Part shown: positions 2,729 through 37,076 of the stretch, piece after piece | Numbering within the stretch: the stretch's first letter is position 1 | Layout: the number at the start of each line of letters is the position of its first letter | Source: a virus | Lineage: Duplodnaviria; Caudoviricetes | Reading direction: 5' to 3' (one strand) | Length of the DNA: 59,191 bases | IMG/VR virus record: IMGVR_UViG_3300034026_000014 | Coordinates: 1-59,191 of that record | Notes under the pieces: generated by a model | Told to the model about the DNA's origin: nothing | Databases searched by the model: none | Seen by the model: only the letters and a program-made list of their open reading frames with translations | Position numbers and translations under genes: made by a program

Positions 2729-4078
2729 ATGCGGGGAGAGAAGCGTCAACAAACAGCCGGATTGGGGGACGTCTCTGGATGCTGCGATAGGGCGCGAGCT
2801 CTGGAGCAGGCCGGGCGTTACGAGGAGGCGCGCGAGCTTCTGTCCGACTGGTGGCCGGAAGTCGGCGAGAGGCCGATACTTGAAGGGTTGAATGAGCGCG
2901 AGGCGGTAGAGGTCAAGCTACGCGTCGGATGTCTGACGAGCTGGCTCGGGAGCGCCCGGCCGGTCGAGGGCGCGCAGGACTTGGCCCTCGACCTTCTATC
3001 GGAGTGCGCGCGGACGTTTGAAGACTTGGGACTGACTGAGCGTCAAGCCGAGGCAGAAATAGGCATGTCCCACGCCTATTTACGGAAGGCGTCATACGAC
3101 GAGGCGAGGGTCATTCTGAATTGCGTGCTCGGGAATCTTTCTCCTGGTGGGGAGCTGGCGTTGAGCGCCATCGCCATGTTGACTACCGTCGAGCGCGCCG
3201 CGGGCGCGCTGGATGAGGCGCTGCGGTTGCACGAGAGTTCAGCGCCGCTATTTGAAGGGGATGATGTGCCGCTGCGTCTCAAGGGTGTGTTCCATTACAA
3301 CTGGGCGGTCACACTTCGGAAACTCGGCCACATCGATGTAGCACTCTCACAGTACGACGCAGCCAAAGAATGCTTGGAGAAGGCGCGCGACACCTCTCGG
3401 CTGGCAATCGTTGAGACCAGTCTCGGCGTCATGTTCTATGAGCTTGGGGCATTCCCCGAAGCGGTAGAGCACACCCGTCAGGCAATCTCACTTTTCGAAG
3501 CGGAATCAAATCAGCGTGGCGTCGCAGAGGCCAATGAAACGCTCTCGCGCGTGCTGGTCGAGGTGGGTGATTACGGCGGGGCAGAGAGCGCGGCTCGCGC
3601 GGCGGTGAACACGCTGCGGGCAGGGGACGAGAAGGCTCTGCTGGTGGAAGCGCTAACGTGCCTGGGCACGGCACTGGCCCGCCAGGGACGCCGCCGCGAA
3701 GCGCACGTAGCCTTTGGAGAGGCAGAGGAGGAGGCGTCGAATTACGTCGGCCGCTCGGCGGCGGCAGTCGTCGTTATGAAGGTGCTGGAGGAGCTATGCG
3801 CACCCGCCTGCCTTGACACTGGCCTCAATCTGGAAGACCCCGTAAATTTGCTGGAGAAGGAAATAATCAGGTGTGCACTCCGAGACTCTAACAAGCAGAT
3901 AAAGGAGGCCGCGATAAGGCTCGGCGTCGAATATGACACGCTGCGATACATCGTCAACAACAGGCACTCTGAACTGCGCGAAGAACGCACAAGAGTATAC
4001 GCCCGCCCACATCGGGGAATCGTCAAGCAAGCTTCATCGAAGGTGAAGAGGATTCGCGACAGGCGGGGTAAGAGCTAA
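2729..4078 (+). CDS. TPR-repeat protein with C-terminal Fis-type HTH (transcriptional regulator)
   Basis: Multiple TPR-like helical repeats; C-terminal LEKEIIRCALRDSNKQIKEAAIRLGVEYDTL resembles the NtrC/Fis HTH; no AAA+ domain seen. Confidence 0.8.
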   Translation: MRGEKRQQTAGLGDVSGCCDRARALEQAGRYEEARELLSDWWPEVGERPILEGLNEREAVEVKLRVGCLTSWLGSARPVEGAQDLALDLLSECARTFEDLGLTERQAEAEIGMSHAYLRKASYDEARVILNCVLGNLSPGGELALSAIAMLTTVERAAGALDEALRLHESSAPLFEGDDVPLRLKGVFHYNWAVTLRKLGHIDVALSQYDAAKECLEKARDTSRLAIVETSLGVMFYELGAFPEAVEHTRQAISLFEAESNQRGVAEANETLSRVLVEVGDYGGAESAARAAVNTLRAGDEKALLVEALTCLGTALARQGRRREAHVAFGEAEEEASNYVGRSAAAVVVMKVLEELCAPACLDTGLNLEDPVNLLEKEIIRCALRDSNKQIKEAAIRLGVEYDTLRYIVNNRHSELREERTRVYARPHRGIVKQASSKVKRIRDRRGKS

Positions 4079-9846: not shown

Positions 9847-11127
9847 GTGAGAAAGGGTAAACACAATAGTATTCCGGGGGGCGGTCGGGGCGGCCCTAAA
9901 TCAGCCGCGGCGCTCAAATTAGCGCCCGCGGCCCCGCCCGCGGCCGCCCCCGGGCTCCTGCCGGAATTCGCCCCGCAAAAAGTAGCCCTTTTTCCGCCCT
10001 CGGCGCTCGGCAATTCCGCGCGCCTTTTCCTCTCAGGATTGTCCGCCTCGGCCCGGCGCTCGACGGCCGCGCGCCTCACAAAATTCACCTCGTTCTTCGG
10101 GCACACGGTGGACTCCTTCCCCTGGGCCGAGCTCAGCCCGGCCCACGTGCTCGCGGCCCGCGGGCTGCTGATAGAGACCGGGGCGGCGCCCCCGTCGGTC
10201 AACCTGCTTCTCTCACACCTGCGGGGCGTGGCGCGCACGCAGCGCCGCGTCCGGCCCGACCTGATGTCGGCCGAGACCTGCGCCGCCATCTGTGAGGTGG
10301 AGGGCGTGCGGGGGAAGTCGGCGCCGGCGGGCCGGGCCCTCCGCGAGGAGGAGATCGCGGAGCTCTCCCGCGTCTGCGCGCGCGACCGCAGCCCCGCGGG
10401 CGCGCGCGACCTGGCGCTGCTGTCTCTCCTCTATTACGTCGGCCTGCGGCGTGACGAGGTCTGCCGGCTGGAGCCCGACGACTGGCGCCAGCGAGACAAC
10501 CGCCTCCGCGTCATGGGTAAAGGCGCCAAGGAGGAGTTCGTCTACGTGGAGGCGAAGCAGGCGCGCCTGGCGCTCGGGCGATGGCTGAGGCGGCGGGGTC
10601 GGCGTCCGGGCTCGCTCTTCTGCTCGGTGTGGCGCGGCGGCCGCATCCGGGACGGCGCCGGCGCCGTCCGAAAGCTCTCGGGCGATGCCGTCTACAAACT
10701 CGTCGAGCGCCGCGCTCGTGAGGCGGGGCTGCGTCCGTGCACGCCGCACGACCTGCGCCGCTCGGCCGTCACGCACCTGCTGGAGCGCGGCGCCGACGCG
10801 CTGAAGGTGCAGGCGTTCGCCCGCCACGAGCAGCTCTCGACGACGACCCGCTACGACCGGCGGCGCGAGGAGGCCAAGCGCGAGGCCGCCCGCCGGCTCG
10901 CCGAACTCAAGCGCGTCCCGCCGGCGCCGCTCAAGCCCAGGCCGCGACGCGCGCGCCGAAAGGGTAAGAAGGGCCGCGGCGGGCGGCCGCGGCTCGCCCC
11001 GCTGGAGGCGCGGCCGCGCGCGGAGCTGCTGGCGCTCGCCCTCGCGCACGGGGCCGCGGCCCCGGAACGTGCGACGCGGGCGGAACTGGCCGCGGCGATC
11101 AGGGCGGCAGTCGGGGGCGGGGATTGA
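9847..11127 (+). CDS. Tyrosine recombinase (XerC/Cre-like integrase or resolvase)
   Basis: GLRRDEV (R), GKG (K), HDLRR (H-x-x-R), HEQLSTTTRY (H, Y): catalytic set complete; extra C-terminal helical extension; start uncertain. Confidence 0.9.
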   Translation: MRKGKHNSIPGGGRGGPKSAAALKLAPAAPPAAAPGLLPEFAPQKVALFPPSALGNSARLFLSGLSASARRSTAARLTKFTSFFGHTVDSFPWAELSPAHVLAARGLLIETGAAPPSVNLLLSHLRGVARTQRRVRPDLMSAETCAAICEVEGVRGKSAPAGRALREEEIAELSRVCARDRSPAGARDLALLSLLYYVGLRRDEVCRLEPDDWRQRDNRLRVMGKGAKEEFVYVEAKQARLALGRWLRRRGRRPGSLFCSVWRGGRIRDGAGAVRKLSGDAVYKLVERRAREAGLRPCTPHDLRRSAVTHLLERGADALKVQAFARHEQLSTTTRYDRRREEAKREAARRLAELKRVPPAPLKPRPRRARRKGKKGRGGRPRLAPLEARPRAELLALALAHGAAAPERATRAELAAAIRAAVGGGD

Positions 11128-13373: not shown

Positions 13374-13628
13374 TCACAACGTCCGATAATATATATTACG
13401 TCTGTTGGGAGCTTTGTTGCAAAAGTCAGCGACTAGCTCAAATGTGACTCTCGCTTGGTGTATCTGACAGAGGTATATCTTTATCTTGGCGTGTCTTTTG
13501 TGGACGAACTTCTCAGTCAGAGGAGAGCCACACTTCCACTGCGAATGGTATCCATTCTGCTGTCTTAATTCTTCTAGTTCGGCTTCTTCGTCTACCGTTA
13601 ACCAGATTTCGGGGTCGGGGATACTCAA
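13374..13628 (-). CDS. Hypothetical protein (low-GC moron; start uncertain)
   Basis: 84-aa ORF in an AT-richer segment. Confidence 0.35.
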   Translation of the reverse strand: MSIPDPEIWLTVDEEAELEELRQQNGYHSQWKCGSPLTEKFVHKRHAKIKIYLCQIHQARVTFELVADFCNKAPNRRNIYYRTL

Positions 13629-13702
13629 TTTTGTGAGGGGATTTGGTTTGTACTTTTAGTATGACAGATTCCAGGGATTGCTCAACTCCTTATATCCACA
13701 GG

Positions 13703-14179
13703 TTAATACCACATACTGACGTGGTAAGTAACCGGAGAGTACACTTCGCCCGCACTTGTGCTAGCAACTACCTGTAAAGCTGCGTCACTGACATCAGAAG
13801 AATGCCAAGAGACAATGATGGTGCCGTCACCACTAAGCGCGCTCACGGTATCAATTGAAGATGAAATAAGTCTTACATAGCCAGTCACAGAATCCTTTAC
13901 GACTGTTCCAGAAAATAACATTGTCGGCTGCACTTGCCCATTAATCGTAAATCCGGTGACAGTTCCGTTGATATGTACTGGCCTATCAACCACAGGTAGG
14001 TTCGGTGTCCACAACCCTTCTGAGGGGACACTAATACTAAAGTCCTTATGGTGACTACCTAAATTCCCGCTGCCAATTGGGTTTTGAGCTAACGCCCCAC
14101 CTCTGCCAGTTGCAATCAATATCCCGATAACTAAACCGACCAGTGCCGCGATAGTGATGCTGGAAGCTGTCTTCTTCAT
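13703..14179 (-). CDS. Exported beta-rich protein (moron)
   Basis: RBS AGGAGG; signal peptide ending in ALA-Q. Confidence 0.7.
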   Translation of the reverse strand: MKKTASSITIAALVGLVIGILIATGRGGALAQNPIGSGNLGSHHKDFSISVPSEGLWTPNLPVVDRPVHINGTVTGFTINGQVQPTMLFSGTVVKDSVTGYVRLISSSIDTVSALSGDGTIIVSWHSSDVSDAALQVVASTSAGEVYSPVTYHVSMWY

Positions 14180-14283
14180 TGGGTCCTCCTAAGGAAAGAT
14201 CACATCTGCCAATTTGTACCCCGTGTAAGTGACGCTGGTAGTGAACCTCTCGCACATACGCGCGCAATCTACACGCCTACAAG

Positions 14284-15873
14284 TTATGCAAGAAGTGAGT
14301 TTGCTGTGTCCGCGAGCAGTTGCGCACGCTCCTTGATGAAATCCCCGTACTTCACCAAAAGGCCCCCCTTTGGGATTAAGGCTGAGCGAAGTATGTCATC
14401 AACGCTTGCGGGAGGCATCATCTTCACGTAATCGGAGGGCGCCTTGTCTTGGATACTTCGATTGTCTTTCTGAGAAAGGAAGGCGAAATTCGCAAGCATA
14501 AATTGCTCGGCTTTGTCCGTAACCCCTTCCTTCGTTGCTAAATAGTTTTTCGGGAAGACGTGATGAAACTCGGTTCGATTACACGTCATGAGAACCTCAT
14601 CAAGGTCGACGTCGGCCGCTGAAAGGAATGATTTTGGTTTCGCCTGAGCCAAGAGCAGGATAAACACCTTAGTATTCACAGAGGTCAGCGCGAATACGTT
14701 GTCGGTAAAGTATTCTGGCGTCACTGTGAAATGACGCTTCTCAAGCTCTGTTGTGTTGCCGGCAAGTAGTTGCAGGATCGCTGCCATATCCTGTGCGATA
14801 GCGTTATCAACGCTGTTCGAGTATCGCCGCGAGAAGCTGCTATGCCAGAACCAATGCCGAAGGGCCGCGCGCTGCTTTGCGTCTGGGTGGAACCCCGCCG
14901 CCTTATCCGTTGCAAAGCATCGAGATAGCGGGATAATCATTGACTTATACGGAAGGATTTTAAGCGACGCCACGCCACAGTCCCGACGTAAGAACTCGAT
15001 AGCACCCAAGAGCCCGCGCCGAAAGACGGGGAAAGAATCGCGCACTTCCGAGCCCTTCAGGTCAACAATTGCGCGGGCTGAGGCATCGTTTCTTACAACA
15101 GCCGCACAGCACTTGAGTAGCAAGTCGGGGTCATCACGCAGGTCGTTGAAGCCTACCTCATCTAGCTCAGTGGCGAGCTCATCAAATTTCGTTCTGAGGT
15201 CGAAGTCGCCGCTCCACGTCCAAGCAGAGAGGAGTTGATAGGTATCTAACGGCACACCGCCCCGATTGATGCGCTCAAAAATGATCGCGATTTTCGAGTG
15301 CTCCTCCGTCTCGACGGTTTCGACAGGAATTACCGCCTCCTTGAACAGCGCTTGCAACTGATCAATTGCCCTCAATTGATCTTCGTCCTTAACTGTCCGC
15401 GTAAATTTGCCGAACTCGGTGACGTCGAAAAGTATTCTGAGCGGGACATGGTTTGGTTTTACGTCGGCGGGTTCGAGGGCAACGAACTGTGAGTCCTGCG
15501 CGCTGGCAGACGCCGAAAGGTCAAAGTAGATGTTAACCCATTTGACATGAGTCGCCGGATTCTGTTTTAGGTCTATCTGAAATGTAGAGAAGATCGAGGT
15601 TAGACGCTGCTGGCCGTCCAAGACGTAATCAATCGGGTACTCTTTCTTGGGCTCCGGCAGCGTAAAAGGACCAAGATCACGATCATAAGATAACTTTTCT
15701 TTGGTTCGCCAGAAAAGAACAGTCCCTATCGGATAGCCTTTGAAGATACTATCCATGAGGAATTGAACGCGGTCTGGTTCCCAAACGAACTCGCGTTGGA
15801 AAGCGGGGATACGGATTTCACCATCCGTAATTCTTTGTAGCAACTGCCGAATCGTGATAGTTGCGATTGCCAT
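14284..15873 (-). CDS. DUF262 + HNH-like (DUF1524) protein, GmrSD/SspE-related defence nuclease
   Basis: IPAFQREFVW, LDGQQRLT and FERINRGG DUF262 motifs; C-terminal EFHHVFPK...ANFAFL...N. Confidence 0.85.
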   Translation of the reverse strand: MAIATITIRQLLQRITDGEIRIPAFQREFVWEPDRVQFLMDSIFKGYPIGTVLFWRTKEKLSYDRDLGPFTLPEPKKEYPIDYVLDGQQRLTSIFSTFQIDLKQNPATHVKWVNIYFDLSASASAQDSQFVALEPADVKPNHVPLRILFDVTEFGKFTRTVKDEDQLRAIDQLQALFKEAVIPVETVETEEHSKIAIIFERINRGGVPLDTYQLLSAWTWSGDFDLRTKFDELATELDEVGFNDLRDDPDLLLKCCAAVVRNDASARAIVDLKGSEVRDSFPVFRRGLLGAIEFLRRDCGVASLKILPYKSMIIPLSRCFATDKAAGFHPDAKQRAALRHWFWHSSFSRRYSNSVDNAIAQDMAAILQLLAGNTTELEKRHFTVTPEYFTDNVFALTSVNTKVFILLLAQAKPKSFLSAADVDLDEVLMTCNRTEFHHVFPKNYLATKEGVTDKAEQFMLANFAFLSQKDNRSIQDKAPSDYVKMMPPASVDDILRSALIPKGGLLVKYGDFIKERAQLLADTANSLLA

Positions 15874-16295
15874 ATGCTCTTCAACCCTTTCGCGAGAAAT
15901 TAGAACCCTGTGCGCACGTTCGCACTCTGCTTTTCTTTAACTGTAGAAGTAAGGAACAGTAATAGCGGAGACTGCTTGAATCGAAGCAGCTTATATCACG
16001 TCACTCGGCACAGCCGATAGGAAAAAAACCAAGATCACATAAAAGACATTATCCGGCCTGATAATGAAAACGGGGCCCGATTCGAGACCCCTCATACAAG
16101 ATGTTGTGGCGGCCCTTTTCCCGCCGATGTCACCGGGGGTAACAAGCCGTCACCGAACGTAGCAGCTATTTCAAGATCGTCGAAAATTGCGTCCCAACAC
16201 AATTAGTGGTGGTGCCAATACGGATCACGCTAAGACAAGGAGGGACTACAGAAAGCATGTGACCTGGTGCTGAAGCCGCCGACGACGGTGACGAG

Positions 16296-16496
16296 ATGAA
16301 CGAGCGACAGCAGGCCAACATCGCCTATTACCTTGAGCGCCTCGAATACTGGAAAGGGCGTAGGCCTGTCCAGTCGACCGCGAGGCTGCTCGCCGCTAGG
16401 GACGCCGACGAGGCGCATCCGCTACGGACGGAGAAGGAGGCAACGGAAGTCGTAGAGTACCTGCCGCGGCTGGAGCGAGAGCGGACGGCCACATAG
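16296..16496 (+). CDS. Hypothetical protein, paralog of 22548-22799
   Basis: MNERQQA..Y.LER..YW.G...ARDAD.AHPLR present in both. Confidence 0.6.
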   Translation: MNERQQANIAYYLERLEYWKGRRPVQSTARLLAARDADEAHPLRTEKEATEVVEYLPRLERERTAT

Positions 16497-16803
16497 TCTC
16501 TTACGTCTTAGCTCATTGCATCCCGGCTGGGGGGGCATCGCCCCCCCCGGCGTCGCCTTCGCCCTTCAGCGGCGGCGCTGGGGCGGACACATCCAGCGCC
16601 CGCCCCCGTGTAGCCGGGTTTATATCACGGGTTGGCGGCATCCTCAACAGTGAACTTCTCTCCCCCGGGCCTCCGCTGTTGGACTTAGCCGCCCTTGCCT
16701 CAAATGCGGCGCGGAAACACGTCACCCTGCGCCCAGTTCATGCCAGTGAACGATGGCACTTAGAATGGGTGCAGCGTCGCATATTTCAGGATGTGCCGCT
16801 TTG

Positions 16804-17637
16804 TCAACGTCGAGACGGTCGAGGTAATCGGGAGAAACTGTGAGTTGCAGGGCGACACGGGGGAGATGTCAGCAGAACGTCCGCGAAATTCGTCGCGACC
16901 CGCAACGCCTGGTTCCGGCCCAGAATGAGAACGTTCTGGGTGCTCAAGGTGTTCTTGCCCACCGCGCCCATCTCCGCTAAGTACTCCCGGGCACGTAATA
17001 GGTCATTCATCCTGACCCAGTCCCAGGCCACGACGACGCCCACCCTGCCCAAGGTGGCGGCGTTAGTCATACTCCCAATCAAGTACTTGAGTTTCGCGTT
17101 GGCCCTCTCGATCTCCACCGCCATAAAGCAGCGAGCGTTCAGGTTATGCGAGCACAGGCTTTCCAAGTCGGGCGACGAGAAACTGCTTCCGAAACTGCGC
17201 AGGTTTCTCTGGAAGGCCCGCAGCATCGCCTCGAGCATTTCCGCATGCCTGTCGGCCATCCGGTCGTACGCGGTCACGTAGCCCCGGAGGGTGGCGAAGG
17301 GGCCTATCGCGAGATCGACCTCCGGCGCGTACATGATCCGGCGCCGAGTCCCGGGAGCCCATATCTCATCCCTGCGCATCGCCCCCCACTCTACGACGAC
17401 CTGGCGACGTCCCACGAAAATACGGCGGAGGGCAGTCGCGAGCTGTGCGGTGTAGGCCGGCACAGGCGACGAGCAAGCACCAGCAAACTGGTTCATGAGG
17501 GCGCGCGCGCCCTTCTCCTGCATTAGCATATAGGGGTGTGAGGTGAACTGCCCCCGGCGGAGCGGGGCTTGGCAGCGCATGAACTCCTCCGCCGTCGGCG
17601 CCGTGAGCTCAGGCTTTCTTTCCTTCCTCTTTCCCAC
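16804..17637 (-). CDS. Putative PD-(D/E)XK-like nuclease
   Basis: PEVDLAIGP...MAVEIE catalytic-like pattern; last gene of the methyltransferase operon. Confidence 0.55.
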   Translation of the reverse strand: MGKRKERKPELTAPTAEEFMRCQAPLRRGQFTSHPYMLMQEKGARALMNQFAGACSSPVPAYTAQLATALRRIFVGRRQVVVEWGAMRRDEIWAPGTRRRIMYAPEVDLAIGPFATLRGYVTAYDRMADRHAEMLEAMLRAFQRNLRSFGSSFSSPDLESLCSHNLNARCFMAVEIERANAKLKYLIGSMTNAATLGRVGVVVAWDWVRMNDLLRAREYLAEMGAVGKNTLSTQNVLILGRNQALRVATNFADVLLTSPPCRPATHSFSRLPRPSRR

Positions 17638-17676
17638 TTTTAGATCCTTCTAATAGACTTTAAGTGATAGAACCTA

Positions 17677-18180
17677 TTATCGAATCTCCTTCCAAATCTC
17701 AAGCGCGAATTTCCTGACTTCACGATAAGCTGCAAGGGCGTCCGACGTTGTTACCCTATTTTGGGGTAGGAGGTTCAATGTTTCGTTGTAGTACAAGGCA
17801 TCATTCCTGGCGACAACAGTTATGAAACGGCTTAACGTAGAGTGAATCGAGAAGTAGGGTTTAGTTCTGTCCGCCAGATCATTGAATAGTAAGATTTTGG
17901 CCTTATGAGAGGAGAGTTCAGTAATTTGTCTGGTTGGTGACGGGTAGTAATGAACTTTTTTACCGCTCGCGTTTATATAATGAGCCCTTCCCTCGGGCGG
18001 TACAGGATAGCCGCGGGCGGCGATGAGAGCACTCACGGCGCATTCATAAGCGTGATAGCAGTGGAAGAAGGCACCGTCGGGGTAAGAAGTCAGTAGAAGC
18101 GAAGCCATGCGCAGGTGACGCAAGGCTAGGCCGTACCACTTTCGCTCTGGGTGAAGGGGGCCTGCGGGAGGTGTCGTCAT
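17677..18180 (-). CDS. HEPN-domain protein
   Basis: ALRHLRMA...AFFHCYHAYECAVSALI...SHKA...RNDALY matches the MNT-associated HEPN pattern; ATGA overlap with the MTase. Confidence 0.75.
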   Translation of the reverse strand: MTTPPAGPLHPERKWYGLALRHLRMASLLLTSYPDGAFFHCYHAYECAVSALIAARGYPVPPEGRAHYINASGKKVHYYPSPTRQITELSSHKAKILLFNDLADRTKPYFSIHSTLSRFITVVARNDALYYNETLNLLPQNRVTTSDALAAYREVRKFALEIWKEIR

Positions 18181-20531
18181 ATACGGTCTAACAACAGAAC
18201 GCCAAGGTCCTCCTCCCGCTGGCTTTTTTTTGCGGAGGCTACTGCCCGCCGCCATTCTGAGGGTGTGAGCAGAGTGAACTGGAGAAGTATCTCTTCGTCT
18301 GCCAGCTGACTGAAGACCTTCTCGGCGATCTCCCGGTAGAGTGCGAAAGAGCGTTCCTCCGAACGCAGGACGATCTGTATTACTACTTCCTCGAACGGCA
18401 GGTTACGTAAATCTAGCCCGTGCCGCGCCCACTCTCCGACGGCGAGAACCTTTTCTATCTTATCCTCAAAAAAATCGGTCAGACTCTGTAGGGCGGTTTT
18501 GAGCACCTCCAGAAGCCCGCCTGACTGCCTCTCAAACTCATCATTCGCGGCGTTAACCTGGCGCAGACGATCAAGGAGGAGGGTAATCCCCTCGTAATCA
18601 GGAAGCAGGAGACCGCTCTTCGCGGCCTCCTTATCCTCTACCTTGTCGCGGATCTCGTCAGCCCTTGAGCGCTGGAAGAAGAGTCTAAGCTGCTTGTAGA
18701 GAGTTACCTTCTTAGGCTCGAATCGCCAGCGGCGCGGCGCCACCACCGTCCCGACGTGACGGAGGAGCGCCGACACGTCGACCGCCCCCATCTGCACGTC
18801 CGGCGCTTCAGAAAACCTTGTCAGGAGGTGCCTGTGGACATCGCCCTCCTTCGCCTCACCCTGCTCTCTCAAAAACTCGAAGACGTAATAACGGGCGCGG
18901 TCGATGGTCGGCAAACTGGGATCGAGCGTGCTCCCGGGATTCATGACCCAGGAGCTGGCGTCTTTATCGAGCTGCCAGATAGCGAAGCGCGGCGTTTCCA
19001 AAAGTTTTTGAATATCTTCTGTTAACTCCGCGGGGTTCTCGCGGTAATTCCTGAAGGCCCGGCTGTCGAGAATCTGCTGGATCACCCCGGAAACAATTAT
19101 TTTGATGTCCGCCCCCAGATAAGAGACTATCAGGCGCTCGATTTCCTTCTCAACGTAGTTGGGTTGAGTCGGCATGTCGAGCACGACGGCACGCGGGTAG
19201 AGGCGGTCGAATTTACGCTGGGACATCTTGCGGAAGTTAAGATACATGTCCCCGCTCGGGTTGATATTCGGATTCTCCCGCTGCCTGGTCGAAGTGATTT
19301 TAAGGTCCTGCCAGACGGCGTTGACATAGCGCAGCCCGCTCCGCTCACAGGCCGCCACGATGCTCTGCCACAGGCTCAAGTCGCGATGTTTGTAGACGAG
19401 GGTGAACCAGCGGTCGGGTTTTAGCGCCCGCGCAATGGCTTCCATCGACGCGGCGAACTCCTGCTCAAACTGCTGCCGTGTTTTAGACTCCGACCCGCCG
19501 ATCAGCAACTCGTCGCGCCGGGTCTCCGTAGTAATGTCAAGCCTCAGCCACGCGGCCCACAGCGCCGATAAATCAACGAAGTGGATGCGGTTGGAGTACG
19601 GCGGGTCGGTGAAGCAGTAATCTACAGTCCCCTCCCCCGTGACCTCGTGGATGCGTCTTGCCGGCACGTCCGCGAATGTGATGTTTCGTTCACTGTAACG
19701 CTCACCTATTAGCTTATTGGTCTCCTGTTTCGCCTCCAACACGTTCTTAAACATGCGGTCGAAGGTCGGCCAAACCAGCAGCTCATAAAATAGGGCCTCG
19801 GAAGCTGGTGAGTAACTGAACCGGCGGAAGACGCCTGCGTCACCCCGGTAAGGGGAGCGGCGCTTACCCTTATCGAAGGGGAGTATGTACGTCCTGTTGC
19901 AGTAACGGACCGTGTTCGCCAGCGCCATCATGAGCAGTTCGCGCAGCAGATGATCTTTCGTCTGCTCGATTGCTCCCCGAAGAATGCTCAGGCCCGCCAG
20001 CTGCCGCGGTGTATGAAGCTCATTAATCGTCTCGGCGCCGCCGGCACCACGCACGGACTGTGGGATTGGATCGCGCGGGTAGTCCAGCCTGAGGAGCAGG
20101 CCGGCCACCTCCGCGTCCGACATGTGATCCAAAGCTTCGATGGGTGCCAGGGCGGCGGCACGCACCTCATCGAAAGAGGCGCGCAAGGCGGCTACATCGA
20201 CCGGCGCCACGGCGGTCATGCGCGTTATGAACCTTGCAAACGGATTTATGTCGCTCGCGACCGTACGCCTACCGAGTACGAGCGCCTCGACGGGCGTCAC
20301 GCCGCTGCCCGAGAAGGGGTCGCACACGAGTTCGCCCGGGGAGGTGTAATGCTTGATGTACTCTTGTATGACGGGCCACGGCTTCTTAGCAAAGAACGGG
20401 GAAAATCCGAAGTGCCTTGAGGCGCCCTTGATGCGGGACCTGTAAGGGACGCTGTAGTCTATCGGCGTGTCGGTGACGTGAGGACGGTCGCCGGGCGAGG
20501 ATGCGTCTAAGTTGCGAGCGAGATTCGGCAT
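18177..20531 (-). CDS. Adenine-specific DNA methyltransferase with C-terminal degenerate MNT-like domain
   Basis: DPFSGSG (motif I), TDPPY (motif IV); C-terminal KIEKVLAVGEWARHG...EEVVIQIVL resembles the MNT GS-x-ARG...D-x-D region. Confidence 0.8.
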   Translation of the reverse strand: MPNLARNLDASSPGDRPHVTDTPIDYSVPYRSRIKGASRHFGFSPFFAKKPWPVIQEYIKHYTSPGELVCDPFSGSGVTPVEALVLGRRTVASDINPFARFITRMTAVAPVDVAALRASFDEVRAAALAPIEALDHMSDAEVAGLLLRLDYPRDPIPQSVRGAGGAETINELHTPRQLAGLSILRGAIEQTKDHLLRELLMMALANTVRYCNRTYILPFDKGKRRSPYRGDAGVFRRFSYSPASEALFYELLVWPTFDRMFKNVLEAKQETNKLIGERYSERNITFADVPARRIHEVTGEGTVDYCFTDPPYSNRIHFVDLSALWAAWLRLDITTETRRDELLIGGSESKTRQQFEQEFAASMEAIARALKPDRWFTLVYKHRDLSLWQSIVAACERSGLRYVNAVWQDLKITSTRQRENPNINPSGDMYLNFRKMSQRKFDRLYPRAVVLDMPTQPNYVEKEIERLIVSYLGADIKIIVSGVIQQILDSRAFRNYRENPAELTEDIQKLLETPRFAIWQLDKDASSWVMNPGSTLDPSLPTIDRARYYVFEFLREQGEAKEGDVHRHLLTRFSEAPDVQMGAVDVSALLRHVGTVVAPRRWRFEPKKVTLYKQLRLFFQRSRADEIRDKVEDKEAAKSGLLLPDYEGITLLLDRLRQVNAANDEFERQSGGLLEVLKTALQSLTDFFEDKIEKVLAVGEWARHGLDLRNLPFEEVVIQIVLRSEERSFALYREIAEKVFSQLADEEILLQFTLLTPSEWRRAVASAKKSQREEDLGVLLLDRI

Positions 20532-20534
20532 GCT

Positions 20535-21017
20535 TTAGGCCGCCTTTCGGAGCTTCTCGACCTGCTCATGAATCGGGACTAAAAGCAGCATCTGCCCGTT
20601 GTGCTTGTGGATGTCAACCACCTCATTATTACTATTCGCATAGTAGACCGAGTATCCGTCGGTCAGGAGGTAGGTTTCGGGGGCGTCCAACCGGATCTTG
20701 TGCTCCTCCAGATTACGCGCTACCTTCTGCACCTGGCTGGGTGTGAAACCCGACCGCCGCAGGTGACACACGATTAAGGCTTTGATCACGTCCACGGCAG
20801 AGTAGAAGGAGGACGGCTTACCGGTCGGCGCATCCGAACGCCGCAACGTGGGGTTAAGGAGGCCGGTTTTATCCCAGTACGAGGCTTGCCTTCTGGTCAT
20901 ACCAGTCAGCCTAAGAAGCTCCGGCACAGTATATAGCCGCTTGCCGAATGGCTTCTTCTTCGGCAATGTAGTGTTCAGCCTGCTGAGACCTCTCGACGCA
21001 TCGCCTTTCTTTCTCAT
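20535..21017 (-). CDS. MerR-family HTH regulator
   Basis: YTVPELLRLTGMTRRQASYWDKTGLLNP...YSAVDV...LRRSG; start uncertain. Confidence 0.8.
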   Translation of the reverse strand: MRKKGDASRGLSRLNTTLPKKKPFGKRLYTVPELLRLTGMTRRQASYWDKTGLLNPTLRRSDAPTGKPSSFYSAVDVIKALIVCHLRRSGFTPSQVQKVARNLEEHKIRLDAPETYLLTDGYSVYYANSNNEVVDIHKHNGQMLLLVPIHEQVEKLRKAA

Positions 21018-21154
21018 AGCACTTATCCATGAACAAATGTGCTTACATTTGTTCATGGTAACGAACTTAGACCGTACTAGCAATATTTTTCTTTTCCAAA
21101 CCTCTCAATTTCCAGCGTCGGATAACGTTTTATTATGACCGAAGGAGAGTGGGT

Positions 21155-21883
21155 ATGAGAGAGGCAGAAAAGATAGTCCGTGCGCTCGTCGAGAGCGTCG
21201 GCGGTGAGAGTAATGCTCAGCGCGTGGAAGACGGAAGCGCAGCCTACTCGCTCGGCGTCGAGCAGGCACAGACCGCGCTGGCGGAAGCCCTGACGCTGGC
21301 ACCCCGGCCGGGCTTCCTGATTTTCGTCGCCCTGGACTACGACCCGGTGACGTCCCAGTTTATCGCCGAGTTCGATGGCTTCCAGGACCTGACTTTATTA
21401 CAGGTGGTCATGAACCCTGACCTGTTCACCGACGACTTAAAGAAGGGGCGGAGGGGCAACGAGAGCTTCTGGCTCGTGGGACAGCCGGACGTCGAGTTGC
21501 GTGAGGCCGGGGAGAACGGCAAGGGCGAGAAACAGTTTCAGGTCGAGGTTCTCGGGTTCGATTATTACAACGTCAAGGAGGGTGCTATCGAATCCGGCGG
21601 CACCAACCGCATCGCCGTCTGGATGCTCGACACGAACTACGACGGCCGCAGCCTCTTCCCTCATCAGGTCTTCTTCCCGATGGCAGGCGAAAAGGACGGA
21701 TGGTCCCGCCTGGCTAAAAATCTGAAGGCTGAGATTGACGAGGAGAAAATCGAAGCCTATCGAGGCACCGTGTCTCTCCCCTTCACCGTCGGCAGCCACG
21801 GGCGCGTCGCCGTCAAAATCGTGGACGACCGCGGCATCGAGAGCGTGAGGTTGATTGAGTTCCCCTCCCATGTCTCAGGCTGA
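21155..21883 (+). pseudogene. C-terminal part of a type III-like site-specific DNA methyltransferase (Mod)
   Basis: GQPDV, WMLDTNYDG, SLPF and AVKIVDDRGIES are typical of Mod C-termini; no catalytic motifs present. Confidence 0.65.
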
Positions 21884-22085
21884 AATCCAGTACATCTACG
21901 AGGTCGGCTACATCACTCTCCGGAGGGTGCGCGGCGACTACTGGCCCGACAAGCTCGCCGACCGCGCGGCGCTGGTGGGCTTATGGGGCTGCGGCAGCTT
22001 CACCGAGGAGGAGTATGACCAAGTCCTGTTCGCCGCCGGCGCGCCGCCGTGGGGGCTCGGCCTGGCCGTGATAGAAGATGACTGA
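21870..22085 (+). CDS. Hypothetical phage protein
   Basis: Coupled ORF. Confidence 0.45.
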   Translation: MSQAEIQYIYEVGYITLRRVRGDYWPDKLADRAALVGLWGCGSFTEEEYDQVLFAAGAPPWGLGLAVIEDD

Positions 22086-22551
22086 CAGGAGCAGGCTCGG
22101 CGAGAAATACGCCATCGTCCACACCTCGATTTACCGCGGCGTCCACTGGGACCGCCGCAAGGGCAGGTACCGCGCCGAGATTGAGGTGCGCACCAAACGA
22201 TATAAGCTCGGGTGGTGGAACGACGACCGCGACGCGGCGCTGGCCTACGACGTGGCCTGTGAGCGCCTGGGCGTCCCGGAGCGGCGCAACTTCGGCGCGC
22301 ACCCCGTCTACGACGAGCTGACGCTGCTGCGGTCGCGGATGGGCGTCTGCCCGACCTGCCGCGGGGCGTGCCAGACCGGGGGCGAATTCCACCCGCCGGG
22401 CGTGGCGGGCTCTCACGGCAGGTTCGTGCGGCTGGGGCGGTGGCGCGAGTGTGAGACCTGCGCCGGCGCGGGATACCTCGTGGACGGGAGGTCAGTCCCC
22501 TGTTCACCGAACCAGGATGCGCTATCCTTAGGAGTCGGGGGATGGGCATGA
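22078..22551 (+). CDS. AP2-domain DNA-binding protein with CxxCxGxG-type zinc finger
   Basis: SIYRGVHW...YRAEI...LG...AALAYD AP2 signature; CPTCRG and CETCAGAG. Confidence 0.8.
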   Translation: MTDRSRLGEKYAIVHTSIYRGVHWDRRKGRYRAEIEVRTKRYKLGWWNDDRDAALAYDVACERLGVPERRNFGAHPVYDELTLLRSRMGVCPTCRGACQTGGEFHPPGVAGSHGRFVRLGRWRECETCAGAGYLVDGRSVPCSPNQDALSLGVGGWA

Positions 22552-22799
22552 ACGAGAGGCAGCAGGCGCACATCAATTACTTCCTGGAGCGCGTCGCCTA
22601 CTGGCGGGGTCTGAAGCGCGACTACTGGGCGGCGCGAATGCTGGGGGCACGGGACGCCGACCAGGCGCACCCGCTGCGCAGTGAAGAGGAAGGCGCGGAG
22701 GTCTTCGAGTATCTCAGCCGGCTGGAGCGGGAGGAAGGCGTCGGGACCGCCGACCGCGACGGGCCTGCTCCTGCTGACGCTGTGCCGCCGCGGCCTTGA
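22548..22799 (+). CDS. Hypothetical protein, paralog of 16296-16496
   Basis: ATGA overlap; sequence similarity to 16296-16496. Confidence 0.6.
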   Translation: MNERQQAHINYFLERVAYWRGLKRDYWAARMLGARDADQAHPLRSEEEGAEVFEYLSRLEREEGVGTADRDGPAPADAVPPRP

Positions 22800-32760: not shown

Positions 32761-33144
32761 ATGGCAGACGGGAGGAGAACAAACGGCGGCGCGCGCCCCG
32801 GCGCCGGCCGCAAGGCCAAGGCGACCGAGGCCGACCTTCAGAAGCGGCTGAAGAAGGCCCTTCAGGCGGACGGGAAGGACCGCCTCGACCGCATGTTCCA
32901 GCTGTGGGTCGAGGACACTGAGGCCGAATCGTTCAGGATACGCCACGCGGCTCGCACGTCGCTCGCCGCCTACCTCTACGGTAAGCCCGTGCAGCGGGTC
33001 CTCGTCGAGGAAGACCCGCCCGACGAGGGCCGCGGCCCGGTCGATCTTTCACAACTGAATAATGAGGAGTTAGACGTCCTTGAGCGCGCCGGCGAAATCA
33101 TTACCAGGGCTCGACGAAGTAAGGGCCGAAAAGGCAAGGCGTAG
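32761..33144 (+). CDS. Terminase small subunit (putative)
   Basis: GGARPGAGRK N-terminus, YGKPVQ, DLSQL..EEL; precedes terL. Confidence 0.7.
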   Translation: MADGRRTNGGARPGAGRKAKATEADLQKRLKKALQADGKDRLDRMFQLWVEDTEAESFRIRHAARTSLAAYLYGKPVQRVLVEEDPPDEGRGPVDLSQLNNEELDVLERAGEIITRARRSKGRKGKA

Positions 33145-34783
33145 CCTCGCCTCCTTCGTCCGTTACAGCTGGCACGTCCTGGAGCCCTCGACGCCTCTGG
33201 TCTGGAACTGGCACATGGACGGCGTTGCGCTCCACACTCAGGCCGCGCTAGAGGACTGGATGGAGGCGCAGCGCTGGCTGGCGCGCGAGCAGGAGCGAAC
33301 AGAGGAGAGACCAGACGAAGAGCCCGAGCCGCCCTTCGTCCAGCGCATCAAGGACCTCCTCTTCAACGTCCCGCCGGGCTCGGCGAAGTCGCGCATCATC
33401 AGCGTCTGCACGCCGGCGTGGATGTGGCTGAAGTGGCCCGAGTGGCGCGCCATCTTCCTCTCGTCCAACCCGCGCGTCGCGCTGCGCGACAGCGGCTACT
33501 GCCGCGACCTCATCGAGTCCGAGTGGTACCAGACTTCGTTCAGACCCGACTGGCAGATTCGGCCGGACCAGAACGCGGTCGGGCTGTACCGGAACACGCG
33601 CGGCGGCTTTCGCCAGGCGCTCGGCTTCCTGGCGAAGATCACCGGCGACCGCGGCGACGCGCTCTTCATTGACGACCCGAACGACCCGGAAGAGGTGCAT
33701 TCTGAGACGATACGCACCTCGGTGAACGACCGGTTCACCTCGACGATCTACAACCGCGTCAACGATCTCCGCACCTCACTGCGCATCGGCATCCAACAGC
33801 GGCTGCACGAGGACGACTTCAGTGGCCACTGGCTGAAAAAGAAGCGCAACGTCGTTCACGTCTGCATCCCGATGCTGTTTGAACCCGCGCGCTACGAGTC
33901 CGAAGCGGACCACATCCCCCGCGAGACTCCGATCGGCTGGAGTGACCCTCGTACCGAAGAGGGAGAGCTGCTCGATCCGAAGCGCTTCCCCACGGAGGTA
34001 GTCGAGGAGGAGAGGGAGCGGCTCGGGAGTTTCGGCTTCGCCGGCCAGCACCAACAGCGCCCGTCGCCCGCCGGCGGGGGCATGCTGAAAGACCACTGGT
34101 GGCGTTACTGGGTACCCAGAGGGGCGACCCTGCCGGGCGGCAAGCCGTACCCGCCCGTCGAGGCCAAACTCGAAGACGGCACGCCCTTTCACTGCCCTGT
34201 CGTCGAGCTGCCCGACGACTTGGAGGAGCTGCTCCAGTCTTGGGACATGACATTCAAGGACACGAAGGCTTCGGCCTACGTCGTCGGCCAGGTGTGGGGC
34301 CGCAAGCTCGCCGACCGGTTTCTCCTCGACGAGGTCCGCGAGAAGATGGACTTCCCCAAGACGCTCAAGGCCGTCTTGGATGTAACGGAAAAGTGGCCCG
34401 GGGCCGTCCTCAAACTCGTCGAGGAGAAGGCCAACGGCGCCGCCGTCATCCAGACGCTCCGGAGCCACGTGTCGGGACTGGTGGCCATCGAGCCGGATGG
34501 CTCGAAGGAGGCGCGCTGCGCGGCCGTCTCGCCCGTGATCGAGTCGGGCAACGTCTACCTGCCGCACCCGATGCTCTACCACTGGGTGTACGGATTCACA
34601 GGAGAGTGCGGCGTCTTCCCTAACGGCACCTACAAAGACCGGGTGGACGCGATGACGCAGGCGCTCAACCGCTGGGGCGGGCCCCGCCCCTCGATCTCGG
34701 TCGGCTCGACGACGGGCGGGCCGCCGGCCCAGCAGGCGTCGCCGCTCGCGTCCATCCTCGGGCGGCTGAGAGGACAGTCATGA
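33080..34783 (+). CDS. terL: Terminase large subunit
   Basis: NVPPGSAKS Walker A, FIDDP Walker B, QRLHEDD, SWD, EEKANG and DRVDA nuclease motifs. Confidence 0.95.
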   Translation: MSAPAKSLPGLDEVRAEKARRSLASFVRYSWHVLEPSTPLVWNWHMDGVALHTQAALEDWMEAQRWLAREQERTEERPDEEPEPPFVQRIKDLLFNVPPGSAKSRIISVCTPAWMWLKWPEWRAIFLSSNPRVALRDSGYCRDLIESEWYQTSFRPDWQIRPDQNAVGLYRNTRGGFRQALGFLAKITGDRGDALFIDDPNDPEEVHSETIRTSVNDRFTSTIYNRVNDLRTSLRIGIQQRLHEDDFSGHWLKKKRNVVHVCIPMLFEPARYESEADHIPRETPIGWSDPRTEEGELLDPKRFPTEVVEEERERLGSFGFAGQHQQRPSPAGGGMLKDHWWRYWVPRGATLPGGKPYPPVEAKLEDGTPFHCPVVELPDDLEELLQSWDMTFKDTKASAYVVGQVWGRKLADRFLLDEVREKMDFPKTLKAVLDVTEKWPGAVLKLVEEKANGAAVIQTLRSHVSGLVAIEPDGSKEARCAAVSPVIESGNVYLPHPMLYHWVYGFTGECGVFPNGTYKDRVDAMTQALNRWGGPRPSISVGSTTGGPPAQQASPLASILGRLRGQS

Positions 34784-35052
34784 GCGAACAGAAACACGCG
34801 CCGGAGTTCAGCGTCGCGGGCTGCGTCCCAGAGCCGGTCGCCGTCGAATTCGCCGACGGCGTCAGGCAGGTGCCCGGCGCCGTCGTCCGCGAGCTGGGCG
34901 GCGGCGAGGCCCTGAAGAAGATGTCGGCGCAGCTCGGCCGGCTCACGTACGCGGACTTCATGCGCGCCTACGGCGACGACCGGGCCGGCCGGGCAGTCTC
35001 CGCGGCGCTCAACTCAATGGTCGGTCAGCACTTAAGGATGTTCACGCGATGA
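34780..35052 (+). CDS. Hypothetical protein
   Basis: ATGA-coupled between terL and portal. Confidence 0.6.
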   Translation: MSEQKHAPEFSVAGCVPEPVAVEFADGVRQVPGAVVRELGGGEALKKMSAQLGRLTYADFMRAYGDDRAGRAVSAALNSMVGQHLRMFTR

Positions 35053-37076
35053 GCATAGTGGGCAGGGTGATTACGGGAGCGCGGTCGCTCGCGGCGGGGG
35101 CGCTGGCCCTCACGGGCTGGCCGGGGGAAGAGAAGTCCCTCGACGACCAGATGATGGGCGGCGTGACGGCCAACCAGGGCGGCGCCGCGATGGTCGTGCT
35201 GCGGAACGCCCCCGCCGACTTGTCGCGCCTCTTCGCCAAGCGCAGGGTGCTGCTGCTCAGGCAGTACGCCGAGCACTCCGAGACCGTGCGCGCTGCCATC
35301 GACATCTACCGCGACCTGATCGAGCAGGCCGAGTGGCAGGTCACGCCCTACGACCGCACGCGCCCGATGGACGAGGGGGTCCGCGCCGAGATCGAGGAGC
35401 TGCTCTCTAGCCCGAACGGCTTCGAGCCCTACAGCACGACCAAGGCGAAGTGCCTCGTCGAGGACTTCCTCGTCGTCGGGCACGGCGGCGTCGAGCTGGG
35501 CATCCGCCGGGACACCACGCCCTGGGGACTCTTCCCCCTCGACGCCGAGCGCCTGGCCTTCGTGCCCGGCTGGGACGGCACCGACCCGACGCTCCCGCGC
35601 TACGCGGAGCTCGACTTCGACGGGCGGGTCCGCCGCTGGCTCCCCGACCAGATGTGCATGACGCTGGTCAACCGCCCCCGCTCCTACGACCCCCTCGGGC
35701 TCTCGCACGTCGAGGTCCTCGACACGGCCATCCGCGCGCTCCTCCAGGGCAGCGACCAGTTCCTCCAGCAGATGATAGACCGCACCCCGGGCGGCGCCCT
35801 CGACCTGGGCGAGGGGTACACCAAGGAGCAGCTCGACGCGTTCCGGCAGGAGATTCAGCAGATCAGGAATTTCTTCGCCGTCGTCTCGAGCGGCAAGGCC
35901 AAGTTCGTCCCCTTCAACGCCAGCGAGCGCGACCTGAGAGCGCTCGACAAGATGCTCTTCTTCAAGCGCATGGTGGCGGCCATCTTCCAGCTCCCGCTGG
36001 CCATGCTCGGCGAGCTGGTGGACTCCTCGCGCGCCAACACCGAGGCGCTGCTGGAGAACGCCGACCGCGGCCCGGGCGCGCTGCTGTGGCGCATCCGGGG
36101 TGCGGAGAACCGTCACCTGGTGCTGAGGTGGGGGCCGTACGCGAAACATAACTGCATGGTGGATTACCCCATCATGTCGCGGCGGGACGAGAAGCAGCAG
36201 GCGGAAATCTCTTCCACCCAGACGGGGAAGAGCGCCTGGGCCTCGACCAACGACGCGCGGCGCGCCTCCGGCCTCGAGCCCCTGGACCTCCCCATCGCCG
36301 ACGAGGTCCTCGTGCCGACGAAGGCGGGCCGCGTCCCGCTCGCCGCGTTGAACGCGCAGTATTTCGATGGCAAAAAGCTCAGGGAGCCGGCGGACGAGGC
36401 AGGCGGCGAAGGGGATGAAACGGGCGAGGCTGACGAGGACGACCGCGGGCCGGAGGGCAAGCGCCTGGCGGTGCGCGCCGGCCGGGCGAAGAACCTCAAG
36501 GCCCCGGTGCGCGTCGTCTCCGGCGGCGGGCGTTTGTTGCCGCGCGCGGGGCTCCCGCTCGAGCACGCCGTCGGGAAGTCCCTGCACAAGTATTCGACGA
36601 CGCAGGTTGACCTGCCCGAAGACGTCGCCGACGAGATCACGGCCTTCGGCGAGGACATCCCCGACGAGGACTTGGCCGACGGCGGCCGCGAAGGCTTCCC
36701 GCACGTCACGGTCAAGTACGGGCTGCACGCCGACGGGGCGGGCGAACTGAAGGAGCTGCTGAAGGGCGTCAAACCCTTCCAGATCACGATGGGGAAGACG
36801 GCCATCTTCGAATGCGAGGACTTCGACGTCGTCATGGTCGAGGTCAAGGGCGCCGCGCTCCGGAGGCTGAATAAGAAAATCGCCGGCGCGCTGGAGCACA
36901 CCGACACGCACCCCGAGTACAAGCCGCACGCGACCGTCGCCTACGTGAAATCCGGAAAAGGGGAGTTATACTCCGGAGACAATTTCCTCCAGGGGACAAA
37001 GGTGAAGGTAGAGGCCGTAACGTTCTGCAACAAAGCGGGGAAGAGGACGATCATTATGCTCGACGGAGGTGAGTAA
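35049..37076 (+). CDS. Portal protein fused to a C-terminal 2H phosphoesterase (Acb1-like)
   Basis: HK97-type portal motifs (GLSHVE, AAIFQLP..MLG, TNDARRASGLEPL), acidic linker, then HVT and HAT 2H motifs. Confidence 0.85.
   Translation: MSIVGRVITGARSLAAGALALTGWPGEEKSLDDQMMGGVTANQGGAAMVVLRNAPADLSRLFAKRRVLLLRQYAEHSETVRAAIDIYRDLIEQAEWQVTPYDRTRPMDEGVRAEIEELLSSPNGFEPYSTTKAKCLVEDFLVVGHGGVELGIRRDTTPWGLFPLDAERLAFVPGWDGTDPTLPRYAELDFDGRVRRWLPDQMCMTLVNRPRSYDPLGLSHVEVLDTAIRALLQGSDQFLQQMIDRTPGGALDLGEGYTKEQLDAFRQEIQQIRNFFAVVSSGKAKFVPFNASERDLRALDKMLFFKRMVAAIFQLPLAMLGELVDSSRANTEALLENADRGPGALLWRIRGAENRHLVLRWGPYAKHNCMVDYPIMSRRDEKQQAEISSTQTGKSAWASTNDARRASGLEPLDLPIADEVLVPTKAGRVPLAALNAQYFDGKKLREPADEAGGEGDETGEADEDDRGPEGKRLAVRAGRAKNLKAPVRVVSGGGRLLPRAGLPLEHAVGKSLHKYSTTQVDLPEDVADEITAFGEDIPDEDLADGGREGFPHVTVKYGLHADGAGELKELLKGVKPFQITMGKTAIFECEDFDVVMVEVKGAALRRLNKKIAGALEHTDTHPEYKPHATVAYVKSGKGELYSGDNFLQGTKVKVEAVTFCNKAGKRTIIMLDGGE

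Follow-up and report, generated by a model that had tools for sequence, protein, structure and literature searches.

Four genes on the minus strand at positions 16804-21017 of IMGVR_UViG_3300034026_000014, a provirus recorded as complete in IMG/VR (59,191 bases; referred to here as the window), encode a MerR-type regulator, a DNA methyltransferase (MTase), a HEPN protein, and a protein with a PD-(D/E)XK fold. The conserved unit among these consists of the regulator, the MTase, whose C-terminal tail is predicted to be a minimal nucleotidyltransferase (MNT) domain without its catalytic motif (hereafter the dead MNT), and the HEPN protein; the PD-(D/E)XK gene lies outside of it. The explanation that we favor, at a probability of roughly 0.5, is that of a three-gene module in which the dead MNT at the end of the MTase holds a coupled HEPN effector by binding to it. 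A preliminary description of this DNA had read all four genes as a hybrid of a restriction-modification (RM) and a toxin-antitoxin operon. While each of its four domain assignments (MerR, MTase with an MNT-like tail, HEPN, and PD-(D/E)XK) is borne out by the profile and fold comparisons detailed below, the unit is not a conserved restriction-modification/toxin hybrid. The features under discussion are as follows.

20535-21017, minus strand: MerR-family helix-turn-helix (HTH) regulator, 160 residues (Pfam MerR_1, E 1.6e-8)
18177-20531, minus strand: MTase, 784 residues (Pfam N6_N4_Mtase)
18600-20531, minus strand: catalytic part of the MTase together with a conserved middle region of unknown fold, residues 1-644 (motif I at residues 71-77, DPPY at residues 309-312)
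18180-18599, minus strand: predicted C-terminal dead MNT domain of the MTase, residues ~645-784 (nucleotidyltransferase, NTase, fold without GSX10DXD)
17677-18180, minus strand: HEPN protein, 167 residues (probably PF05168-type; Arg125 kept, Tyr130 at the position of the Rx4-6H His)
16804-17637, minus strand: PD-(D/E)XK-fold protein, 277 residues (by fold comparison)
21027-21058, minus strand: inverted repeat with perfectly matched 14-bp arms and a 4-nt loop, 9-41 nt 5' of the regulator ATG

Gene Organization

As the preliminary description had noted, the four genes are co-oriented and closely spaced: 3 nt separate the regulator gene from that of the MTase, the MTase and HEPN genes overlap by 4 nt (ATGA), and 39 nt, containing a GAAGGA stretch, lie between the HEPN and nuclease genes. 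A scan for terminator-like sites found none between the four genes, and the nuclease gene may be co-transcribed with HEPN in this prophage. Two of the gene starts adopted here differ from those recorded. Firstly, the regulator gene is listed as 20535-21083, and its likely start is the ATG at 21017 because the resulting 160 residues fit the 159-160 residues of its orthologs. Secondly, the HEPN gene is taken to begin at the ATG at 18180 (giving 167 residues, rather than the listed open reading frame, or ORF, of 192) because the MTase stop codon overlaps it as ATGA. The HEPN family alignment is conserved from this Met onward, with M1, R13, and W15 invariant, and the recorded gene call of 143 residues is therefore too short.

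The C-Terminal Domain of the Methyltransferase

The end of the MTase had been described as a degenerate MNT-like segment in which the GS and DxD motifs are replaced by GEWAR and EVVIQ, and both strings are found in the protein, at residues 699-703 and 716-720, respectively, with neither a GS nor a DxD motif present there. The GSX10DXD signature is thus missing: G699-E700 is followed, after X10, by L-P-F, and there is no DxD on strand 2. An AlphaFold2 model of MTase residues 600-784 (mean predicted local distance difference test, pLDDT, 88.9; predicted template modeling score, pTM, 0.80) places the Gly-Glu at the strand 1/helix turn where GS is expected, and begins strand 2 at E116 of the fragment (EVVIQIVL).

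Structure prediction had been named as a check on this assignment, and an MNT fold is what was found. In an exhaustive fold comparison (VIA-align) of the tail and nuclease models against 48,161 PDB chains, the top matches of the tail were 2rff (Z 7.4), 8xeh_E, which is the MNT chain in a HEPN-MNT complex (Z 7.4), and 1no5_B, or HI0073, the MNT partner of the HEPN protein HI0074 (Z 7.3), all of them scores that the comparison tool's own note classes as middling. These three are minimal NTases, of which 99-101 of 102-111 residues were aligned at a root-mean-square deviation of 3.0-3.3, such that the alpha-beta-alpha-beta core of the tail is superposable on solved MNTs. All of the top 15 rows are nucleotidyltransferase folds, and the matches also include the MNT chains of the solved HEPN-MNT complexes 5yep and 6m6w. 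The ranking is uniform and covers whole target domains despite the middling Z scores. A Foldseek search of the model against the PDB returned nothing at E <= 1e-3 (best 1.3e-2), its best rows all being of NTase fold, and a profile of the tail found nothing meaningful among PDB sequences, the best match being ferritin/Dps at E 0.07.

At the level of sequence, neither the tail nor its free-standing homologs match any Pfam NTase family at E <= 1, PF01909 included. When residues 600-784 were compared with 1.84 billion representative proteins, 40 representatives were found at E <= 1e-3, of which 32 have at most 224 residues, four have 761-784 residues, and four are intermediate in length, with the match at the C-terminal end. 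Since these relatives are mostly short, the tail represents a domain family of its own that exists mostly as a small free-standing protein. The consensus of a 32-sequence alignment is AVG[DE]WAxxGIDLRxLPYxxVVLxIVLR, where the window has GEWARHGLDLRNLPFEEVVIQ, and the sole invariant residue is the Asp of GIDLR (D108 of the fragment, D707 of the MTase). The model and these motif losses lead us to regard the tail as a domain of MNT fold that is predicted to be unable to catalyze nucleotidyl transfer, in agreement with the preliminary description.

The Methyltransferase Core

The Pfam N6_N4_Mtase match (E 4e-13) is confined to MTase residues 44-97, which align with positions 160-213 of the 221-position profile. 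The S-adenosylmethionine-binding motif I is D71xFxGxG77 and motif IV is D309-P-P-Y312, and D71, F73, G75, G77, and all of D309-P-P-Y312 are invariant in 22 of 22 aligned full-length homologs, whose mean column identity over the whole length is 65%. By its sequence the enzyme looks active and of the DNA N6A/N4C type. The best PDB sequence matches, RsrI, CcrM, and MboIIA, align at their C-terminal ends to the same motif I, and because the DPPY lies at residues 309-312 the motif order of the present enzyme is I...IV, permuted relative to these beta-class enzymes. Its nearest profiles are PADLOC MTase_II (6.7e-31), PglXI (1.9e-27), and DUF1156_MTase (1.5e-11), together with phrog_10183 "DNA methyltransferase" (1.1e-22) and NCBIfam DUF1156_antiphage (2.8e-13). 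The mad1-mad8 gene set of MADS is not present; weak matches to mad1 (9.7e-6) and mad2 (3.3e-7) fall on the HTH and MTase motif regions, and no other mad genes were found among the seven window proteins scanned with PADLOC.

The HEPN Protein

A total of 45 homologs of the HEPN protein were found, 13 of which carry a precomputed PF05168 match, and when 23 aligned members were scanned directly, 20 of them matched PF05168 at E <= 0.01 (best 4e-6). A comparison by language-model features, 185 of which are shared, links the window protein to HEPN clusters (score 0.90). PADLOC, PHROGs, and NCBIfam hold no family for it, and its profile gave no match among PDB sequences at E <= 10. The segment corresponding to the HEPN motif reads R125-N-D-A-L-Y130-Y131, and thus departs from RX4HXY. 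In addition to R125, the invariant polar residues are H40, H43, and E46 (within FHxYHxYEC) and H92, against a mean column identity of 63%.

This arrangement fits published accounts of PF05168 proteins. Pairs of PF05168 and PF01909 proteins constitute "Class II," in which RX4H is missing and Tyr is conserved, and on which, as Yao et al. stated, there had been no biochemical work (Yao et al., 2020; PMC7641770). HEPN-T proteins often do not have the His, carry a conserved His elsewhere, and cluster with R-M operons (Anantharaman et al., 2013; PMC3710099). Judged from its sequence, RNase activity of the window protein is possible, and is not implied.

Conservation of the Three-Gene Unit

A HEPN pattern scan of one genome per species (GTDB set) yielded eight loci, L001-L008. 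One of these, L008, was not counted, having a HEPN match of 44 residues only and an upstream ORF that is weakly tail-like (hhalign probability 41%). Among the seven loci with a full-length HEPN gene, five (L001, L002, L003, L005, and L006) have directly upstream of it an MTase gene of ~780-805 codons fused to the tail, at 58-62% identity, and in the other two (L004 and L007) this position is taken by an ORF of 168-179 residues homologous to MTase residues 607-783, at 41-46% identity. Thus an MNT gene directly 5' of HEPN, fused in five cases and free in two, is found in all seven loci as well as in the window. The free-standing tail genes of L004 and L007 provide good, if indirect, evidence that tail and HEPN work as a pair. 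The pair in L007 adjoins ORFs that appear transposase-like in sequence.

The tight coupling of the MTase and HEPN genes recurs as well, the same ATGA overlap being present in three of the five fused loci (L001, L002, and L005), with a 3-nt spacer in L003. A MerR gene lies directly upstream of the MTase gene in four of the five. The flanking genes of the trio loci are housekeeping genes, encoding peptide deformylase, a thiamine pyrophosphate enzyme, an ion channel, and DUF6391. Co-conservation, which the preliminary description had made a test of its proposal, accordingly holds for the MerR, MTase, and HEPN genes and fails for the PD-(D/E)XK gene, whose distribution is described below.

In L006, the place of the regulator is occupied by an ORF of 74 residues (3316-3540, plus strand) with weak ribbon-helix-helix matches (E 0.005-0.03, below cutoffs), which suggests a swapping of regulators of the kind seen in toxin-antitoxin and R-M modules.

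With regard to regulation, the perfect inverted repeat upstream of the window's regulator gene is a candidate operator for autoregulation of the MerR operon. At the corresponding position, loci L001-L003 carry an imperfect repeat of another sequence that is conserved among the three, TTAGCAAA-N10-TTTGCTAA, just after a TATAAT-like box; no upstream repeat was found at the regulator of L005, and a promoter scan reported no sigma-70-like promoter upstream of the MerR gene.

The family of MTases with a dead MNT is rare. Of 401 sampled genomes from the phylum of L002, 57 have some match to the MTase and two have a full-length ortholog (862 and 762 bits; frames of 793 and 805 residues), the next best match scoring 76 bits. 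This sample, drawn from one phylum, contained no tail-less close relative of the MTase.

Proposed Mechanism and Alternative Readings

The gene order, the folds, the motif losses, and the conservation pattern are established by the comparisons above; binding, the activity of HEPN, and the trigger of its release are inferred. In the reading that we favor, the dead MNT/HEPN pair would have begun as a mobile, two-gene, toxin-antitoxin-like cassette whose first gene was later fused to an MTase. Being unable to AMPylate its partner, the dead MNT would hold and silence HEPN by stoichiometric binding, the MTase-HEPN complex forming in 1:1 amounts, and loss, degradation, or a conformational change of the MTase would set HEPN free. 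The freed protein would act as an effector, targeting or binding RNA in a non-canonical manner via Arg125 and the invariant His40, His43, Glu46, and His92, and the regulator probably represses its own operon via the inverted repeat. The parts of this scheme differ in strength: binding of HEPN by the dead MNT is probable, while the proposal that HEPN is a harmful, RNA-directed effector is a tentative one to which we would give somewhat less than an even chance.

Several observations weigh against this reading. The window HEPN protein matches PF05168 itself at E 0.011 and 16.4 bits, under the curated cutoff of 22. In all 23 aligned family members, a Tyr stands at the His position of Rx4-6H, a feature that the preliminary description had missed; given that the canonical catalytic His is not there, the "release of an RNase" that it envisaged is less secure than was assumed. 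Moreover, no toxicity of "Class II" PF05168 HEPN proteins had been demonstrated as of Yao et al. (2020; PMC7641770), and the assignment of an effector role to HEPN may be wrong. To these points are added the middling Z scores of the tail and the small size of the family, most of whose context comes from seven loci in metagenome-assembled genomes.

The main alternative is that dead MNT and His-less HEPN form a non-toxic accessory module, an inert pair serving MTase oligomerization, nucleotide sensing, or nucleic-acid binding. Canonical catalytic motifs have been lost family-wide in both partners, and according to Anantharaman et al. (2013; PMC3710099) MNT-fused HEPN domains are typically without RNase residues and exapted as substrate-binding or regulatory domains; the toxicity of Class II HEPN proteins is, in addition, unproven (PMC7641770). 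Precedents would be the HEPN-like substrate-binding domains of kanamycin nucleotidyltransferase and GlnE, and the pseudo-NTase dimer of NF45 and NF90. The latter, the DZF heterodimer, is among the structural matches of the tail (Z 5.7-6.2) and likewise uses an NTase fold without catalysis as a protein-protein interaction domain, but it is eukaryotic, comprises a much larger domain, and has no HEPN partner, and so serves as an analogy only. Set against an accessory role are the free dead MNT/HEPN two-gene cassettes, including that of L007 near transposase-like ORFs, which are hard to explain where there is no enzyme to serve, the strongly conserved polar constellation of R125, H40, H43, E46, and H92, and the presence in the operon of a dedicated, tight regulator of the sort found in toxic modules. 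On balance we regard an accessory module as less likely than the favored reading, though as the strongest of its rivals.

A further possibility, which we judge improbable, is that of an "R-M" system without restriction, in which methylation status is coupled to an effector acting at the RNA level. The complex of the MTase, its dead MNT, and HEPN would methylate host DNA, and an encounter with unmethylated invader DNA, or inactivation or degradation of the complex in the course of infection, would free the non-canonical HEPN protein to shut down RNA function. If this were true, evolution would have made of the dead MNT a tether by which a mobile toxin-antitoxin pair has become the effector arm of an epigenetic sensor of self and non-self.

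The PD-(D/E)XK Protein and the Question of Restriction

The preliminary description had counted the 277-residue protein as the restriction component of its hybrid, and the assignment of a PD-(D/E)XK fold is sound, the protein combining a restriction-endonuclease-like fold with conserved residues of the D...(D/E)xK type. Its model has a mean pLDDT of 74.9, with a well predicted core at residues 56-258 (pLDDT above 90), and its best folds are Can2 (Z 6.6), the R.BspD6I small subunit (6.3), N.BspD6I (5.9), EcoT38I (5.8), and BglII (5.6), in a range that extends down to 5.2 and is middling. In a 21-sequence alignment, Y103, P105, D108, E175, and K184 are invariant and E177 is at least 90% conserved. 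No Pfam, PADLOC, or PHROG family matches the protein, and NCBIfam gave nothing meaningful; Foldseek against the PDB gave nothing at E <= 1e-3, and its profile found nothing meaningful among PDB sequences (best E at least 0.23). A language-model match to NmeDI_C (score 0.80) is a lead only and was not used.

The distribution of this protein is unlike that of the other three. No homolog occurs in any of the eight HEPN loci. Conversely, 149 metagenomic loci with nuclease homologs were found, the homologs being mostly of 180-220 residues and without the first ~60, and in the best 80 of these 149 there is no match to the MTase, HEPN, or MerR protein at E <= 1e-3. Likewise, none of five whole genomes with the MTase or the dead MNT-HEPN module has any member of the nuclease family, these genomes being metagenome-assembled and possibly incomplete. 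From the immediate neighborhood of the homologs 119 ORFs were extracted, of which 112 were scanned with Pfam, seven from duplicate loci having been dropped. The neighbors are mixed defense genes (Mrr_cat, DpnII, TIR, HSDR_N, SduA_C, BrxL, SIR2, AAA_15/21, GmrSD, Ymh, and HNH), and three of the 112 are methylase-related (HsdM_N, Methylase_S, and one generic small MTase). The protein is best seen as an independent, separately mobile, un-named small defense-island protein that lies downstream of HEPN here by chance, and as one member of a widespread family of small PD-(D/E)XK proteins in defense islands that has no name and in which no member matches a Pfam, PADLOC, or PHROG model.

These data bear directly upon the idea that a classical Type II RM system operates in this prophage, the MTase protecting against the nuclease, MerR acting as controller protein, and HEPN being a passenger. 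The MTase has the intact motifs I and IV that such a system requires, the nuclease has a restriction-endonuclease fold with conserved acidic and Lys residues, its gene is on the same strand, 39 nt from HEPN with no terminator-like site between, and controlled RM systems typically have a regulator gene preceded by a palindrome. A cognate endonuclease gene next to that of the MTase is nevertheless absent from the comparison loci and genomes just described, and MTase-related genes are few among the nuclease neighbors. Furthermore, the three other members of the window's MTase cluster at 90% identity or more come from contigs 10920, 55006, and 9422 bases long. Contigs of these lengths also carry the close HEPN cluster, and by length, which is a crude test, they coincide with none recorded for the nuclease clusters. 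A Type II system is decidedly improbable.

The last alternative is the guard model of the preliminary description, in which phage anti-restriction proteins such as Ocr or ArdA attack the MTase and a HEPN RNase is released. A parallel would be the action of the Stp peptide on PrrC. Both Ocr and ArdA block Type I enzymes by DNA mimicry and are not known to act on MTases of the present kind. An N-terminal ABC-ATPase domain and a HEPN domain with the Rx4-6H His, in or beside an R-M locus, are the features of PrrC and RloC. Although the predicted architecture, with HEPN tethered to the MTase via a binding-only domain, would be compatible with it, the module lies in a prophage defense island next to a GmrSD gene, and HEPN effectors serving as a backup beside systems based on methylation have been discussed in the BREX-related context (PMC12839542), we hold this model to be highly improbable, as the conserved loci have no restriction activity to be backed up and the 167-residue HEPN protein has neither an ATPase domain nor the Rx4-6H His.

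Relation to Known Systems

MNT and HEPN proteins form tight complexes, with the MNT encoded 5' of HEPN (PMC3710099), and in Class I the MNT neutralizes HEPN by AMPylation, for which GSX10DXD is required (Yao et al., 2020; PMC7641770). The present module resembles HepT/MntA (type VII, Class I) in having an MNT-fold component encoded immediately 5' of, and tightly coupled to, a small HEPN gene. It differs in that the MNT is without GSX10DXD and is fused to a 640-residue MTase, while the HEPN protein is without RX4HXY, the His being replaced by Tyr, and probably belongs to PF05168 rather than to DUF86 or PF08780. With Class II pairs (PF05168/PF01909; HEPN-T) it would share a HEPN protein of probable PF05168 type without RX4H and with conserved tyrosines (PMC7641770); a clustering of HEPN-T with R-M operons was noted in 2013 (PMC3710099). 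The Class II MNT, however, keeps GSX10DXD, whereas the present one is without the motif, has no PF01909 match, and is fused to the MTase.

More distant likenesses exist. The concept that a HEPN protein and a DNA-modification enzyme are linked in function is shared with PrrC and RloC, from which the present system differs in its single-domain HEPN protein with no ABC-ATPase and no Rx4-6H His, in having no Type I hsd genes, and in a link formed by a dead MNT adaptor. The PglXI/DUF1156 MTases of Type 3 BREX and BREX-related Hma provide the nearest profiles for the MTase core, and HEPN effectors have been described as add-ons in those systems (PMC12839542). Yet no BrxC/DUF499 ATPase, helicase, or PglZ is found among the window genes scanned, the NCBIfam score is 48.9 bits against a cutoff of 1000, and the present MTase is half the size of those enzymes.

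The links published to date join HEPN proteins to R-M, BREX, and BREX-related systems, and include fused MNT-HEPN toxins (PMC13000451). No description of an MTase with a dead MNT paired with HEPN was found in the literature searched, which covered few subscription journals, and PADLOC has no model for this architecture.

Setting Within the Prophage

The landmarks of the prophage are as follows, with tail genes reaching up to 58 kb in the window:

9847-11127: integrase
14284-15873, minus strand: candidate GmrSD-type (DUF262) Type IV restriction enzyme, 529 residues (Pfam GmrSD_N 9.7e-32; PADLOC PDC-M55C 1.7e-59 and HEC-05 1.7e-40)
33080-34783: terminase
35049-37076, plus strand: portal (Phage_portal, E 2.2e-16)

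The G+C content is 0.50-0.60 at ~13-22 kb, as compared to 0.63-0.72 in most other 1-kb bins, and this stretch adjoins the integrase gene and contains the GmrSD-type gene together with the MerR, MTase, HEPN, and nuclease genes. The PD-(D/E)XK and GmrSD genes are separate cargo in the same prophage defense island beside the integrase. DNA repeats flanking the low-G+C island were looked for and none were found. Two small ORFs on the plus strand, at 16296-16496 and 22542-22799, bracket the MerR-MTase-HEPN-nuclease block; their products share 65% identity over 62 residues (E 3e-28) with no repeat at the DNA level, and they may mark a site at which cargo is inserted or exchanged between related phages.

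Two further plus-strand ORFs lie beyond the regulator. The first, of 244 residues (21149-21883), is divergent from the MerR gene and matches large MTase profiles solely over their final ~180 positions (PADLOC MTase_III positions 795-980 of 983, 6.9e-18; phrog_67 positions 571-739 of 743, 1e-21); it is either what is left of a truncated phage MTase or a C-terminal domain encoded on its own. The second, of 157 residues (22078-22551), has an AP2-domain match below threshold (E 3.6e-5; 24.4 bits against a cutoff of 33.3) and may be a phage DNA-binding protein of the HNH/AP2 type. In an unusual fusion, the C-terminus of the portal protein (residues 548-636) is a 2'-5' RNA ligase/2H phosphoesterase-like domain (7.3e-11), which could bear on RNA repair or on degradation of cyclic-nucleotide signals.

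Scans of IMG/VR found no viral contigs related to the HEPN alignment or to the MTase. When contigs of four DNA sequencing runs were compared over 13500-22600, none spanned the HEPN/nuclease junction with at least 31 letters on both sides. One further study (X2) contains identical short pieces across 29 of 30 bins, representing the same element rather than an independent occurrence. A look-up of RNA sequencing data for 16700-21100 found none.

Significance

MNT-HEPN pairs are among the commonest of toxin-antitoxin modules, and their known mechanism is the AMPylation of HEPN by the MNT. The family described here departs from this in two respects. Firstly, the catalytic motif of the MNT has been lost, yet its pairing with HEPN is strict. 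Secondly, in one branch of the family the MNT has become the C-terminal domain of an intact DNA MTase under its own regulator. The family would also offer a handle on the unstudied PF05168 ("Class II") HEPN proteins. Should the two partners bind as we infer, the dead MNT would constitute a natural pseudo-enzyme antitoxin that serves as an adaptor, connecting an epigenetic enzyme to a HEPN effector.

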